A stretch of DNA of 64,000 nt from an uncultured cyanobacterium (GCA_963703315.1 OY969811.1:1-64000), one strand, 5' to 3'. Positions 35,984 through 42,005 are shown, numbered from the stretch's first letter. Notes: generated from the sequence alone by a model not told the origin. Numbers and translations: made by a program.

Positions 35984-35998
35984 CTAAACACTTTGTCT

Positions 35999-38170
35999 AT
36001 GTCTGCAACCACTTCTGTTTTAACCAATACCACACCTCAAATCGTCAAAACCCTTTGCCCCTACTGCGGTGTTGGTTGCGGTTTAGAAGTGGTGGAAACT
36101 ACTAAAGAACCCACGATCAAATTTCCCGATCGCTTTAAAGTCCGAGGCGATCGCGATCATCCTTCTAGTCAAGGCATGGTTTGTGTCAAAGGCGCAACCA
36201 TTGCCGAGTCTATTCAAAAAGATCGGCTCTTACATCCGATGATGCGCGATCGCCTCGATCAGGAATTTCGTCAAGTCAGTTGGGATGAGGCTCTTGAGAC
36301 GATTACGCAACGCATTCAGCAAGTGCTAGCCACCAAAGGTGCAGATGCTCTCTGTATGTATGGTTCGGGGCAGTTTCAAACCGAGGATTATTACACAGCC
36401 CAGAAATTATTTAAAGGTTGTTTAGGAACCAATAATTTTGATGCCAACTCCCGTCTCTGTATGTCTTCCGCCGTGTCAGGCTATGTTAAAAGTTTTGGCT
36501 CCGATGGACCTCCCTGCTGCTATGAAGATTTTGATTTAACTGATTGTCTGTTTGCGATCGGCACAAATACCGCCGAATGTCATCCGATTATTTTTAATCG
36601 CTTTCGCAAACGCCACAAAAAGAATCCCCATGTCAAGCTAATTGTCATTGATCCTCGGCGGACGCAAACTGCTGAGGTTGCCGACTTACACTTAGCGATT
36701 CAACCCGGCACTGATATTGATTTATTAAATGGCATTGCCCACCTGTTATTGAAATGGGAGAAATGCGATCGCCAATTCATCGAAAACCACACCACAGGCT
36801 TTAGCGAATTTACGGAAATCACCCAACTCTATACTCCCGAATTCGTGGCAAGACGCTGTGGAATTAGTGTAGAAGATTTGGAACTAGCCGCGAAATATTG
36901 GGCAGAATCGCAGCGAGTTCTCTCAATATGGTCAATGGGAGTCAATCAGTCCACTCAAGGCACTGCCAAAGTCCAATGTATTATTAATCTGCATTTACTT
37001 ACTGCTCAAATTGGCAAAGCAGGAACAGGCCCTTTTTCGCTCACTGGTCAGCCCAATGCAATGGGAGGCAGGGAAGCAGGAGGCTTAGCCCATTTATTAC
37101 CAGGCTATCGCTTTGTCACGAATCCTGAACATCGTGCGGAACTAGAAACATTTTGGAATTTGCCTACGGGACAAATTTCCTCTCAAGTTGGACGTACCGC
37201 ATGGGATATGGTGCGCGGTTTAGAAACCGATGAAGTGGATTTGCTTTGGATTGCCGCCACTAATCCTGCGGTTAGTTTTCCTGACTTAGTACGAACTAAA
37301 GCGGCATTGAGGCGATCGCCTTTTACCGTTTATCAAGATGCCTATTACCCGACCGAAACTTCTGAATTCGCCCATATCTTGCTACCAGCAACCCAATGGA
37401 GCGAGAAGACTGGCACAATGACTAATTCTGAGCGTTGCGTTACGCTCTGTCAATCCTTTCAGCCTCCCCTCGGTGAATCCCTTGCTGATTGGGAAATTTT
37501 TGCCGCAGTTGGACGTAGATTAGGTTTTGCTGACAAATTCCCGTTCCAAAACTCCGCCGAGGTCTATGCCGAATTTGTGCAGATAACTCGCGATCGCCCC
37601 TGTGATATGACAGGTATCAGCCACGCTAAACTCACACAATTAGGCGCGATGCAATGGCAAGCTTCCGATCAACATCCTGAGCAAGATCAGGTTCACGATA
37701 AGCGTCTCTACACGGATTTACAGTTCTATACCCCTGACCGCAAAGCCAGATTTGGTATTTATCATTCCCAAGGTGTATTTGAAGTTCCCGATGAGCAGTA
37801 TCCATTTATTCTCACTACTGGCAGACTATACGGACATTGGCATACGCAAACTCGCACAGGTAGAATTGACAAGATTCGGCAAATGTATCCCAATCCATTT
37901 ATCGAAATCCATCCCAAGGATGCACATAAATTTGGTATTAATAACGGTGATCTAGTAGAAGTAAAGTCACGTCGCGGTTCTTCTAAGTTTCCTGCATTGG
38001 TGACGGAAGCGATCGCGCGAGGTGTATTATTTGTACCGATGCACTGGGGCGCACTCTGGGCAGACAATGCCGAAGCTAATGCCCTCACTCATCCTGAAGC
38101 TTGTCCCGACTCCAAGCAGCCAGAGTTAAAGGCTTGTGCAGTGGCGATCGCTCTAGTTAATTTGCATTAG
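35999..38170 (+). CDS. narB: Ferredoxin-nitrate reductase (Mo-bis-MGD)
   Basis: 'CPYCGVGCG', 'NSRLCMSSA', '[10 protein letters not shown]', 'SKQPELK'. Confidence 0.96.
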
Positions 38171-38386
38171 GAGAGAAGCTCTTGGTGTTTGTTATACAGT
38201 GCCACAATTAGCCGCATTGATGGTTGATTGTCAAAATCATGGCGATCTCCTTGATTTTGGCAGATAGTGAATACGCGATCGCTAAAATCCTCGATTCACA
38301 AAATAGTGGTAAAACTGCAACATTTTACTTTTTGGGTGAAATTTGCCATAATTAATTAAAACTTGCTAAATAATTAGTGAATTTAT

Positions 38387-38881
38387 ATGTCTTCTAAAGA
38401 TCTTGAGATGCTTGAGAAAAACATAGAGAGGTTACGTGAACAAATAGCGGGGGTGCAAGAAGCGCTGGTACTAGCTGAAAGACTTGACAAGCCCAGAATT
38501 AAGCAAGTAATTGGTAAATTACGTGAGGAACTTCTTGATTTTGAGCAGGAAAAGTGGAATCTGATTGCTGAGGTTACATCAGATGCAGAGATCGCTAATG
38601 ATGAAGCTGAGAACATCGTAGCGGAACTTGTGGCAAAAGCGACTAATCCTCCTGATGACGCTTCAACAGAAGTTTTGGCATTATTGCAACAAATCCTGAC
38701 GAAGATTAACGAACAAGATAAAACGGCGGCGGCAAAGTTAAAGGGGGCAATTTCACTTTTACCACCTTTTGTATCGCTGGTCTTTGAGACAGAAATGGAT
38801 ACAGAGAATACAGTTAAGAAATATTTTCCGACCTTTAGCCGTTGGATAAAAAAGGAGGCAGTAGGTCGCCTAAAAAAGTAG
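38387..38881 (+). CDS. Helical hypothetical protein; probable N-terminal module / short isoform of the downstream NLR-like protein
   Basis: 164 aa ORF ending at CTA AAA AAG TAG and overlapping the next ORF in the -1 frame. Confidence 0.75.
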   Translation: MSSKDLEMLEKNIERLREQIAGVQEALVLAERLDKPRIKQVIGKLREELLDFEQEKWNLIAEVTSDAEIANDEAENIVAELVAKATNPPDDASTEVLALLQQILTKINEQDKTAAAKLKGAISLLPPFVSLVFETEMDTENTVKKYFPTFSRWIKKEAVGRLKK

Positions 38882-41232
38882 CTTTTCCAGAAGAGCATAA
38901 TTCTGCAAAATCTGGTATCAAAATAGCGCAAAACATACAAACTGCTTTAGAAAATCCTGTGGCTGGTGGTGATATTAATGCACCCATCACACAGAAAATC
39001 GAGAACAACCCAAATAAGGTAGCTGAAAATATAGGGGTGCTGGCTCAGTCGGGTAGCAACGTAACTATTCAAAACCTGAATGTTGCTAGTAGCACACCAC
39101 AACTAGACGCTAATCCCTTTGCGCCGCCATCTGTGCGTGATAGTGGATTGTTTGGACGAGTGGACGATCTAAAACGATTGCATGAGTTGTTGCAAGGTGG
39201 AAAAAATGTCTGCGTGGTCACAGGTATGGGCGGTGCGGGCAAGACAGAACTGGTACGGGATTATGCGGGTAGTGCGGAATGTCGCGAGTTATTTGCGGGT
39301 GGGGTGTTTTATGTAGTTGTGCGCGATCGCCAAAATTTAGCGGCGGAAATTGTCACTTTGACTGAATGGCGGTTTAAGAGTCCGTTGCCCAAAAATTTGA
39401 CACTGAAACAGCAAGTTAAGGCTTGTTGGGATGTATGGAAACGTCAAAATGTAAAGTCATTGTTGATTTTAGATGATGTGTCTAAGTTGGCGGAGAATGT
39501 GAAACCCTATTTGCCAACCTCAGATTTGACATCGTTGCGCCTATTGATGACTTCGCGGGAAAGCCCAGACAGTGCTATTCAAAAGTTAGAACTACAGGAG
39601 TTATTGCCTGATCCTGCAAGGGAATTTTTGGCTTCAATTATTGGGGCGGCGCGGGTAGAACAGGAAAGCGAGCAAGCCGATTTGCTCTGTGAGGATTTGG
39701 GGTATTTGCCTTTGGCGTTGGAACTAGTGGGCTATTACTTGATAGATGATGACAATACTGAATTGTCACTGGCAGCGATGCGGGGCAAGTTACAGGAAAA
39801 GGTAAATCATGCTTCTCTCTCTCCTGAAGATATGCCGATGGGGATAGCTGCGGAAAGAGGTGTGATGGCTGCGTTTGACTTGAGTTGGGAGGAGTTGAAA
39901 ACAGAAGCGCAATATCTCGCCTGTGTATTAGGGGCATTTGCATCGGCTCCGATAGATTGGAGTCATGTGGAAGGCATATATGTTAAGTCGCAAGGAGAAG
40001 CATTTAATCCTGATAATCTAAAAGAGCGCTGGTTAAAATCCTTACTGAAACTACATTTAGTCAAGAAAACAGAGTCAGGTATTTTCGTTCTACATTCTCT
40101 CCTACGAGACTATTTTACTTCACAACTAAATAAGCATAGTGATCGAAGCCAAATTTTGTCTTCTTTTATCGCTGTCTTTGTCGATGTAGCAAAAATTATC
40201 GAGTTATATACAACTCTCGCAATTTTCAAACGACTCGAACCCCAACTTAAACAAATCATCTCTCTTCAAAATAACAAGGAAGATCCGCAACTTGCTATTT
40301 GCTTGAATGGCTTGGCAGGACTATATCAATCGCAAGGTAAGTACGGAGAAGCAGAACCACTCTTTGTTCATGCTCTATTGATTCGGGAAAAAAGACTAGG
40401 AGCATATCATCCCAATGTTGCAACCAGCCTTAACAATCTAGGATTACTGTACGAATCGCAGGGGAAGTATAGAGACGCAGAATTGTTCTATTTGCGATCA
40501 ATCGAAATTTATACAAGACAATTTGGCGTAGACCATCTCACTATCGCAGACAGTTTTAATAATTTGGCAGAACTATACCATACGCAAGGAAGGTACAACG
40601 AGGCACAACCTCTTTTTGTAAAATCTCTTTTAATTTATGAAAAAGAACTTGGTGCAGATCATCTTAATGTTGCTATTGTTCTTAATAATTTGGCATTACT
40701 TTATCAAACTCAAAAGAAATATAGCAAAGCAGAACCACTATTTGTAAAATCACTCTCAATCAGGAAACTGAGACTAGGAGTAGACAATTTGCTTGTCGCT
40801 ACTAGTCTAAATAATTTGGCATTACTTTATAAAGATCAAGGGAAGTACAACGAGGCAGAACCACTCTTCGTGCAATTACTTGAGATTTTAAGAGGACAGC
40901 TAGGAGAAAAACATCCTACCTTTGCTAATAGTCTAAACAATCTGGCATCACTTTACGATTTGCAGAAAAAGTATAGTGAGTCAGAACCTCTATATGTTCG
41001 ATCACTCGAAATTAAAAAACTTACATATCAAGGAGATCACCCTGAAATTGCAATAAGCATGAACAATTTAGCACTATGTTATAGATTTCAAGGAAACTAC
41101 GGCAAGGCAGAACAGTTCTATGTAGGAGCGATCCAGATTCTTGAACAAACATTTGGCTCTAATCATCCCAGCACGATACAAGTGAGCGAAAACTATAGGC
41201 TCTTACGCAATGCAATGTATGAATCCTCATAA
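38842..41232 (+). CDS. NB-ARC/STAND NTPase with C-terminal TPR repeats (bacterial NLR-like)
   Basis: Walker A 'GMGGAGKT', Walker B 'LLILDDV', 'LMTSR', 'GYLPLAL', ~7 'SLNNLA.LY..QGKY.EAEPL' TPRs; no ATG before the P-loop. Confidence 0.9.
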   Translation: MDKKGGSRSPKKVAFPEEHNSAKSGIKIAQNIQTALENPVAGGDINAPITQKIENNPNKVAENIGVLAQSGSNVTIQNLNVASSTPQLDANPFAPPSVRDSGLFGRVDDLKRLHELLQGGKNVCVVTGMGGAGKTELVRDYAGSAECRELFAGGVFYVVVRDRQNLAAEIVTLTEWRFKSPLPKNLTLKQQVKACWDVWKRQNVKSLLILDDVSKLAENVKPYLPTSDLTSLRLLMTSRESPDSAIQKLELQELLPDPAREFLASIIGAARVEQESEQADLLCEDLGYLPLALELVGYYLIDDDNTELSLAAMRGKLQEKVNHASLSPEDMPMGIAAERGVMAAFDLSWEELKTEAQYLACVLGAFASAPIDWSHVEGIYVKSQGEAFNPDNLKERWLKSLLKLHLVKKTESGIFVLHSLLRDYFTSQLNKHSDRSQILSSFIAVFVDVAKIIELYTTLAIFKRLEPQLKQIISLQNNKEDPQLAICLNGLAGLYQSQGKYGEAEPLFVHALLIREKRLGAYHPNVATSLNNLGLLYESQGKYRDAELFYLRSIEIYTRQFGVDHLTIADSFNNLAELYHTQGRYNEAQPLFVKSLLIYEKELGADHLNVAIVLNNLALLYQTQKKYSKAEPLFVKSLSIRKLRLGVDNLLVATSLNNLALLYKDQGKYNEAEPLFVQLLEILRGQLGEKHPTFANSLNNLASLYDLQKKYSESEPLYVRSLEIKKLTYQGDHPEIAISMNNLALCYRFQGNYGKAEQFYVGAIQILEQTFGSNHPSTIQVSENYRLLRNAMYESS

Positions 41233-41305
41233 ATTTGGCACAAAACTCTATAACAGTAAGGCATATAAAACGATACCAATCCTCAAAGTAACAGAAGAAA
41301 AATAT

Positions 41306-41626
41306 ATGAAAACCAAAGATATTTCGGCTAAATCTATGAATGTACTTAAATTGCGATCTAATCACCCAGAATCGATCAAGGAAATGATCGAAAGTGACCT
41401 CGCTAAAAGGTTACAAATCATTGAAGTAGCAATACAAACTACCCACAAAAAACTAAAACAGTTTGAATCCCAATATCAGTGGTCAACTGAAAAATTCGTT
41501 AATCTCTTCACCAGTGATCAATTGCAACATAGTCTAGATTTTGATGAATGGCTAGGAGAAGCGTGGATGTTAGAAAAATTGCAACAAAAACAAGCAATCA
41601 TCAAGGAGATCGAATTTGTTGATTGA
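41306..41626 (+). CDS. Putative antitoxin partner of the DUF6516 protein (TumA-like)
   Basis: Small acidic ORF 'LKQFESQYQWST..F....LDFDEW' overlapping the next gene. Confidence 0.6.
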   Translation: MKTKDISAKSMNVLKLRSNHPESIKEMIESDLAKRLQIIEVAIQTTHKKLKQFESQYQWSTEKFVNLFTSDQLQHSLDFDEWLGEAWMLEKLQQKQAIIKEIEFVD

Positions 41627-42005
41627 TAACTATTTTGAACGCATTAGGAGTGTACTTTCCCAGCCTTCAATTATTCAAAAAGTTGAACTTGAGACAGAAA
41701 AGCGCACAGATACACTTGGTTTTATTAGAGGTAATGTCTATTTTAAAGATGGCTCATTACTGCATATTCGAGAATTTGTTGATGTAGAAACATCCATTGA
41801 CAGAGGCAAATATACTTATCAGTACATGAATAAAGAAGGCGATCTAATTTTTCGTTATGACAATGCTCTCCATCATCAAAAGCTAAACCTGTCAACATTT
41901 CCCCACCACAAACATGATCGCCATGAAGACAATATAGTTATTTCGACTGCTCCTTTACTAGAGGCTATTTTCCAAGAAATAGAAAGAATTATAAGCCAAT
42001 ATTAA
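41616..42005 (+). CDS. DUF6516 family protein (TumE-like toxin)
   Basis: 'KYTYQY...IFRYDNALHH..LSTFPHHKH'. Confidence 0.75.
   Translation: MLIDNYFERIRSVLSQPSIIQKVELETEKRTDTLGFIRGNVYFKDGSLLHIREFVDVETSIDRGKYTYQYMNKEGDLIFRYDNALHHQKLNLSTFPHHKHDRHEDNIVISTAPLLEAIFQEIERIISQY

Follow-up and report, generated by a model that had tools for sequence, protein, structure and literature searches.

The window analyzed here is a stretch of 64,000 nucleotides (nt) from an uncultured cyanobacterium (GCA_963703315.1, OY969811.1:1-64000), and our subject is a locus at positions 38387 to 41232, in which a small open reading frame (ORF1) ends on two lysine codons and a much longer ORF, encoding an NLR-like protein with NB-ARC and TPR domains, continues from it in the -1 frame. 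The features of the locus are as follows.

38387-38881, plus strand: ORF1, the zero-frame product and putative free adaptor, with the core AAAKLKG..S..PPF...E...DTE....Y.PTF.
38836-38838, plus strand: TAG in the -1 frame, which is open from 38839 on, 33 nt before the second heptamer.
38848-38854, plus strand: first A_AAA_AAG heptamer, in ORF1 phase, the IKKE variant.
38852-38858, plus strand: Shine-Dalgarno (SD)-like AAGGAGG, 13 nt 5' of the second heptamer.
38872-38878, plus strand: second A_AAA_AAG heptamer, in ORF1 phase, conserved; the proposed -1 shift site.
38879-38881, plus strand: ORF1 stop codon TAG, abutting the second heptamer on its 3' side.
38878-41232, plus strand: -1 continuation, 784 codons plus stop (linker, NB-ARC NTPase, TPR array).
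About 39178-39804, plus strand: NB-ARC NTPase, with the P-loop GMGGAGKT at 39223-39246.
About 40255-41211, plus strand: TPR array, matching many TPR families in Pfam.

ORF1 encodes 164 amino acids (aa) and closes with the codons TGG ATA AAA AAG GAG GCA GTA GGT CGC CTA AAA AAG TAG. A sequence-only reading of the window had reported the span of ORF1, these codons and the -1 ORF extending to 41232, and each lies, base for base, where that reading placed it; the phase of both heptamers, the position of the second directly before the stop, and the AAGGAGG upstream of it are likewise there in the sequence. In Pfam, the -1 ORF matches NB-ARC (PF00931, E = 1.7e-9, 37.7 bits against a cut-off of 23.5) and TPR_12 (E = 1.5e-72), and it qualifies as NLR-like in having an NB-ARC domain with a P-loop followed by a repeat array. 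The computed product of a shift at the second heptamer is 164 + 784 = 948 aa, with the junction ...GRLKK|VAFPEEH, in agreement with the 164-aa module and the fusion of ~948 aa that had been predicted. We put at roughly 80% the probability that programmed -1 ribosomal frameshifting gives rise here to both a free adaptor and an adaptor-NB-ARC-TPR sensor, a judgment that draws on comparative sequence evidence. The bare heptamer is no rarer in the window than chance would have it (31 matches to A_AAA_AAG on both strands, compared with 28.9 expected from shuffles), and its significance therefore comes from its conservation in other genomes.

A search of 401 genomes across the phylum found the ORF1 family in 37 of them, in 48 match rows. 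Longer stretches were taken for 40 rows, and the loci were scored with a family hidden Markov model against six-frame translations; 41 loci, the window included, were analyzed. Seven rows were dropped: partial matches at G154:C226, G300:C315 (two), G346:C33, G095:C52 and G380:C280, together with G216:C160, which lies at a contig end and keeps the heptamer, with a -1 ORF of only 9 codons. A -1 ORF of 220-1175 codons starting at the end of ORF1 is seen in 25 of the 41 loci, representing 23 genomes and 8 families. All 25 have an in-phase X_XXY_YYZ heptamer, always in the same phase (21 A_AAA_AAG, 2 A_AAA_AAA, 1 G_GGA_AAA and 1 G_GGA_AAG). The heptamer falls within the last four codons in 22 of the 25, compared with 4 of the 16 other loci (Fisher p = 1.2e-4, a value that overstates independence because the loci are related to one another), and the ORF1 stop follows it directly in 12/25 loci and one codon later in 10/25. 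Within ORF1 bodies the background of in-phase heptamers is 68 in 7,776 codons. Between pairs of the 25 loci, ORF1 has a median identity of 38% (range 21% to 92%); the site, its phase and its direction are thus conserved among diverged homologues, as a programmed -1 site should be. The prediction that homologues would carry a heptamer near the stop and a long -1 ORF, even with differing downstream domains, is borne out.

The residue encoded just before the heptamer varies (V, P, A, L, E, Q or K), and the third base of its codon fits the heptamer in every case. This points to a constraint on the nucleotides and not on the protein. The first heptamer in the window behaves differently: in the family alignment, W-I-K-K-E occurs at that position only in the closest homologues and the others have W-T-K-E, and on this alignment it is lineage-specific, and probably a secondary or incidental slip site.

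Two ordinary overlapping genes would also account for the arrangement in the window. ORF1 would simply terminate, the NB-ARC-TPR protein would start at TTG 38842, GTG 38959 or GTG 39037 or by reinitiation, no fusion would be made, and the heptamer would be a Lys-Lys tail. Taken alone, the window makes independent initiation possible, with these three start-like codons in its -1 frame and an NB-ARC domain that begins only ~100 residues past the site. The sequence-only reading had found no ATG in this frame before the P-loop, and the first ATG is indeed the M of GMGGAGKT; it had left the TTG and GTG codons unmentioned. Other loci contradict independent initiation. The heptamer follows the opening of the -1 frame by 0-9 nt in 16 of the 25 loci (by 0-3 nt in L045, L048 and L062), and a start-like codon upstream of the site is found in only three (L044, L050 and the window). 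Elsewhere the first ATG, GTG or TTG lies 8-182 codons downstream of the site, except in L039, where the first 200 codons contain none; in most related loci the -1 frame reaches the conserved NTPase domain without passing a start codon. For L045 and L062, Pfam places the beginning of nSTAND1 at residue 8 or 6 past the site, and the first TTG is a Leu codon inside the conserved PYRGL motif. The window's AAGGAGG lies downstream of TTG 38842 and has no start codon 3' of it at initiation distance. The constraint on the third base before the heptamer speaks against a mere Lys-Lys tail, and L066, whose KK is not preceded by A (the domain stands at the end of a 669-aa ORF closing with GCG AAA AAG TGA), has no -1 ORF. 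In-frame fusions of ORF1 to nSTAND1 also exist. It would seem that, across the related loci, the -1 ORFs are unable to start easily on their own, and we regard separate genes as quite unlikely.

A programmed -1 site is expected to have a stimulatory element, either an SD-like site upstream or a structure 5-9 nt downstream. Among the 25 loci, 15 have a perfect hairpin of at least 6 bp starting 3-9 nt past the heptamer, with 9 distinct stem sequences, compared with 2.6% of control positions in the same ORFs. Hairpins were scored by position, as uninterrupted stems of at least 6 bp, since a comparison of minimum free energy with control windows is uninformative for the TPR-rich loci, whose background is strongly structured. 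In the window it is the SD-like site that stands out: the pairing of AAGGAGG (-11.5 kcal/mol) is the strongest of the set and lies in the top 2% of the locus background, and the motif is complementary to the 16S 3' end of the same genome (..CACCTCCTTA; ..GGATCACCTCCTTA). A scan of 38000-41500 against Rfam (E <= 1) returned no family.

The loci without a perfect hairpin (the window, L037, L040, L050, L054 and L057) tend to have stronger SD-like sites. By inspection, it is as if hairpin and SD-like site substitute for each other. In three loci with nSTAND1 or AAA_35 (L045, L048 and L062), the 3' arm of the hairpin is formed by the codons of the P-Y-R-G motif (CCG TAT CGG GG), and RNA stem and protein motif thus lie on the same bases.

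An A-run can also change the frame of an mRNA through transcriptional slippage, in which the polymerase adds an extra A and some of the transcripts carry both ORFs in one frame, with no shift by the ribosome. Efficient slippage of this kind has a run-length threshold of about A8-A9. The long runs typical of it are found in L036, L039, L047 and L058 (A9-A10) and in L052 (A10), and these are long enough that both mechanisms may operate in the family. The run in the window, as in 16 other loci, is only A6, rather short for slippage to be efficient, and the phase of the heptamer is identical everywhere. In the two loci with G_GGA_AAA or G_GGA_AAG no run exceeds 3-4 bases, and there homopolymer slippage is no explanation. 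The hairpins stand at the spacing typical for ribosomal -1 sites, and one RNA contig bridges the site without an inserted A, though contigs drop rare variants. For insertion sequence (IS) elements, Antonov 2013 describes the ribosomal and transcriptional mechanisms as potentially interchangeable, with slippage runs of n > 7. For the loci with A9-A10 runs transcriptional slippage is to be taken seriously; at A6 sites, that of the window among them, and at the G_GGA_AAR sites it is unlikely.

A third possibility is that the locus is a broken gene or an artifact, an in-frame ORF1-NB-ARC-TPR gene that lost one A in reality or in assembly and is either non-functional or phase-variable. Homopolymers are prone to indels, the same domain is known from a few in-frame fusions (P0281, P0305 and P0265), and loci that keep the heptamer with a short -1 ORF (L065, L067, L069 and L010) show that decay occurs. 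Against this, one and the same frame relation and heptamer recur in 25 loci of 23 genomes and 8 families, and a random lesion would not be expected to be flanked by conserved hairpins and SD-like sites. The downstream ORFs, at 220-1175 codons, are intact and have full Pfam matches in all loci except L058, and the stand-alone forms of ~165 aa ending in KK are far more numerous than the in-frame fusions. Contigs of two other DNA studies, taken from Logan, bridge the site with 0 gaps (X2 record 3 and X3 record 5), and a metatranscriptome contig (X6 record 8) bridges the A-run without a gap. The extra A that the sequence-only reading had named as fatal to its proposal is thus absent from all three. 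Conservation and the indel-free independent contigs together exclude an assembly error, and a lesion of any kind is very improbable.

The long -1 ORFs differ widely in what they encode, as judged by Pfam.

NB-ARC and TPR: the window, L032, L034, L035, L037, L038, L040, L041 and L043.
AAA_16 and TPR: L031.
NACHT: L033 and L042.
nSTAND4: L036 and L039.
nSTAND1 and FGE-sulfatase: L045.
nSTAND1 and WD40: L062.
nSTAND5/AAA_16: L047.
AAA_35: L048.
TPR only: L044, L046, L050 and L051.
VMAP-C: L054 and L057.
No family: L058.

A constant ORF1 followed by such variable partners indicates that one module and its recoding site have been joined to many types of sensor.

Several observations weigh against programmed frameshifting as the general explanation, or against its operating efficiently in the window. 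To begin with, 16 of the 41 loci do not have the combination of heptamer and long -1 ORF, and the relatedness of the loci tempers the statistical comparison given above. A downstream gene that starts at an ATG or GTG of its own, 3 nt past the stop, is found in L059, L061 and L064, which shows that the two proteins can be made separately; these three belong to a distant ORF1 subfamily ending in ..RLVRR, and their downstream genes encode PPC, periplasmic-binding or GUN4 domains. L063 (G196:C73) has an ORF1-like end (..GGA AAA TGA) and, immediately past the TGA in frame 0, an NB-ARC-TPR ORF of 784 codons, and L055 (G274:C1) has an NB-ARC-TPR ORF of 1230 codons in the +1 frame and no heptamer at the end of ORF1. 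A strong SD-like site is found in only 8 of the 25 loci with a long -1 ORF. The window locus itself has no perfect downstream hairpin in the positional test, and its downstream structure (CCAGA/TCTGG) is weak, at -8.9 kcal/mol and z = -0.89. The three start-like codons in its -1 frame could in principle serve as independent NB-ARC starts. Its genome has tRNA-Lys(CUU) besides tRNA-Lys(UUU); from work in E. coli, tRNA-Lys(CUU) is expected to lower slippage on AAG, and the efficiency of frameshifting at the window site may be low. Finally, the Logan contigs hide minority RNA variants, and among those listed for the probable source run (X1) coverage is confined to 39285-39400, off the slip site.

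Some of these exceptions may have explanations of their own. Four loci that keep the heptamer with a short -1 ORF (L065, L067, L068 and L069) are probably decayed or cut. In L063 the first start-like codon of the frame-0 ORF comes 31 codons in, and the sequence could represent a variant of the same coupling by read-through of the TGA stop codon. The arrangement in L055 could reflect a second shift, a lesion or another mechanism; in the third frame, an ORF of 32 codons begins at an ATG that overlaps the TGA stop. Fragments of AAA_35 lie in the +1 frame of L052 and L053. As for tRNAs, 43 were found in the genome, including one tRNA-SeC (anticodon TCA).

ORF1 itself matches no Pfam, NCBIfam or PADLOC family, and no enzymatic family. 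A word-indexed search returned 96 stand-alone homologues of 90-287 aa, mostly 162-168 aa, and in an alignment of 32 homologues nearly all end in ..RLKK or ..KK. A search for longer homologues gave only three, and the two that were compared with ORF1 have the domain at their C-terminus. With a profile, 297 clusters were found among 1.84 billion representatives. Among the 150 representatives listed, most are stand-alone proteins of ~165 aa, ~28 are longer proteins that end with the domain, and ~10 have it N-terminal to an extension, 6 of these being long. A Protein Atlas search with ORF1 returned only cyanobacterial clusters without a name. The AlphaFold model of ORF1, built on the family alignment, is all-helical, with seven helices that include a long N-terminal helical hairpin (pLDDT 78.4, pTM 0.60), and Foldseek found no match to it in the PDB at E <= 0.001. 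A wide search with VIA-align matched residues 1-60 to helical hairpins of a generic kind only; their Z of at most 8.4 does not reach the meaningful level for helical proteins, and no fold was assigned. A homodimer prediction for ORF1 scored 0.01, with a mark of 0.42, and counts neither for nor against binding.

The proteins in which ORF1 is fused in frame to other domains are informative as to its role. The domain is N-terminal to nSTAND1 (P0281), TPR (P0305 and P0265), TIR (P0359), GUN4 and a periplasmic-binding domain, and C-terminal to TIR/SEFIR (P0337, P0312 and P0345), LRR-Roc-COR (P0356 and P0285), an SNF2 helicase (P0222) and TRADD-like-N (P0233). P0281 is collinear with the predicted trans-frame product of L045. 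In P0233 (406 aa), TRADD-like-N lies upstream of the ORF1 domain and the C-terminus is ..AKALAKKS, as in the frameshift group; judged by its sequence, this suggests a three-part arrangement of TRADD-N, adaptor and, after the shift, sensor. A fusion pattern of this sort was used to define the effector-associated domains (EADs) of STAND/VMAP conflict systems by Kaur, Burroughs, Iyer and Aravind 2020 (PMC7159879). ORF1 resembles EADs in being small, non-enzymatic and mostly alpha-helical, as seen from the model and the family searches, and in occurring both on a core component (STAND or VMAP-C) and on effector or signaling domains. It departs from them in that a profile search of the same genome finds only the window locus and no second copy; one further match, over 62 positions with E = 0.008, is not convincing. 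The only partner for the tethered domain would consequently be free ORF1 itself.

EAD9 (PF19962, cut-off 25 bits) matches 8 of the 32 family members below threshold, at 13.9-20.2 bits over residues 4-55, covering model positions 13-58 of 62, and does not match the ORF1 of the window at E <= 0.1. These scores would fit a distant relation confined to the N-terminal hairpin. The best reading is that ORF1 is an EAD-like homotypic adaptor, and not a demonstrated member of EAD9. The suggestion that it acts as the effector of the pair finds no support, the domain associations being a better match for such an adaptor.

We therefore have two proteins to place in a scheme, and programmed -1 frameshifting would produce them from one mRNA as follows. 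The majority of ribosomes would stop at the TAG at 38879-38881 and release the 164-aa helical protein. A minority would slip back one base on the A_AAA_AAG at 38872-38878, the Lys-tRNAs re-pairing from AAA-AAG to AAA-AAA; the next codon would then be GTA, and reading on in the -1 frame would give the 948-aa ORF1-NB-ARC-TPR fusion. In the window the likely stimulators are the adjacent stop codon and the internal AAGGAGG, which can pair with the 3' end of the 16S rRNA, and in most related loci the hairpin 3-9 nt downstream would take this role. With ORF1 read as an EAD-like homotypic adaptor, the fusion would be a STAND/NLR-like sensor with an N-terminal adaptor, and the same adaptor would also be present free and in excess. 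Recognition of a ligand by the TPR part could lead the NB-ARC domain to oligomerize and the tethered ORF1 domains to cluster. The cluster might then engage the free ORF1 pool by recruitment or polymerization, or the free pool might act as a buffer. The ratio of sensor to adaptor would be set by the efficiency of frameshifting. An immune role is suggested by the domain families and by a neighboring candidate defense pair.

A broader interpretation, which we offer only tentatively and consider less probable than its contrary, is that ORF1, heptamer and stop form a portable adaptor-plus-recoding cassette found on at least seven unrelated sensor families. The tethered adaptor would be rare and the free adaptor abundant, the latter being a signaling or killing polymer nucleated by the activated sensor, with stoichiometry fixed by frameshift efficiency. 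Among related loci, L063, through read-through of its TGA, and those with A9-A10 runs, through transcriptional slippage, may arrive at the same outcome.

The surroundings of the locus are consistent with such a role to a limited degree. Directly after the NB-ARC-TPR gene, at 41210-42005, are two overlapping small ORFs that match the PADLOC candidate pair PDC-M44A/B, weakly for PDC-M44A (E = 8.5e-4) and with E = 8.3e-16 for PDC-M44B; the second ORF of the pair is a TumE toxin by Pfam (E = 7.2e-25). The two ORFs probably form a toxin-antitoxin or candidate defense pair, and they fit a defense neighborhood weakly. When the NB-ARC-TPR locus was compared with the defense-system models of PADLOC-DB (2023), in which experimentally defined antiphage STANDs such as Avs and bNACHT are modeled, the one match was to a generic TPR model (PDLC01169, E = 1.9e-13). 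The gene just upstream of ORF1 (35993-38170) encodes a molybdopterin oxidoreductase, in which no in-frame stop was seen. A homologue search with the NB-ARC part returned many TPR proteins of Nostocales, 438-1065 aa in length; it gave no answer on their starts and was not used.

To our knowledge, only a handful of families among bacterial chromosomal genes use programmed -1 frameshifting, dnaX foremost, besides IS elements and phage genes. If confirmed, the loci described here would add a widespread and conserved family of recoded cellular genes. They would also explain hundreds of "hypothetical proteins" of ~165 aa that end in KK before apparently start-less NLR-like ORFs, the latter truncated or mis-started by annotation pipelines. 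STAND/NLR-like sensors are now central to research on prokaryotic immunity, and confirmation would reveal a new way to put the same adaptor on sensor and partner, as in Death-fold and EAD signaling, with both made from one gene at a fixed ratio. Should the cassette interpretation prove true, no earlier example would be known of an NLR-like immune or cell-death system controlled by recoding. The site, being short and portable, is directly testable by reporters. We found no report of frameshifting or recoding in STAND, NLR-like or EAD genes in the literature searched, which was in part accessible; the cluster tables in the supplements to Antonov 2013 and Sharma 2014 lay outside the search and could list the family. 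What we describe would appear to be a recoding signal of a familiar kind in a setting that is new and of biological interest, with conservation across families of cyanobacteria.

Among known systems, E. coli dnaX offers the closest parallel in its signals. It shares the identical A_AAA_AAG, an upstream SD-like element (13 nt away in the window, within the range of 6-17 nt upstream that was searched according to PMC4066793) and a downstream hairpin, which most of the related loci have. It differs in that the dnaX shift leads to a shorter product (gamma), whereas the shift in the window would lead to a longer fusion. The window gene, moreover, is not a replication gene, has no strong hairpin, and lies in a genome with tRNA-Lys(CUU).

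The topology of the ORF1 loci is that of orfA-orfB in IS3/IS911. There, the end of a small ORF coincides with A_AAA_AAG or comes just after it, the -1 ORF is start-less, and the fusion is the large functional protein, with the short product also made (PMC5009743). Unlike these elements, the ORF1 loci have no transposase domains, and a constant upstream module is followed by seven or more sensor families downstream.

With the EADs as described in PMC7159879, ORF1 shares a small, non-enzymatic, helical nature, an N-terminal position on STAND and VMAP-C, and its occurrence on effector and signaling domains as well; a search of the paper for recoding or slippage gave no hit. ORF1 is longer, at ~160 aa compared with the 62 positions of the EAD9 model, whose Pfam cut-off no member reaches. 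The second copy, in contrast to the EAD scheme, is not on a separate effector gene but would arise free from the same gene by recoding.

Production of a short and a long protein with a common N-terminus from one gene, in a ratio determined by frameshift efficiency, is known from the tail assembly chaperones G and GT of phages. The proteins are unrelated to those described here, and the ORF1 loci are chromosomal and cellular, with a short product that is adaptor-like. In fungal NWD2/HET-S and bacterial BASS/Bell, the N-terminus of a sensor and a separate small protein share a module, and oligomerization of the sensor templates the free protein. No amyloid motif was seen in ORF1. The shared module of those systems is a short amyloid motif duplicated in two genes, whereas at the ORF1 loci it would be a whole helical domain of 164 aa, supplied to both partners by one gene.

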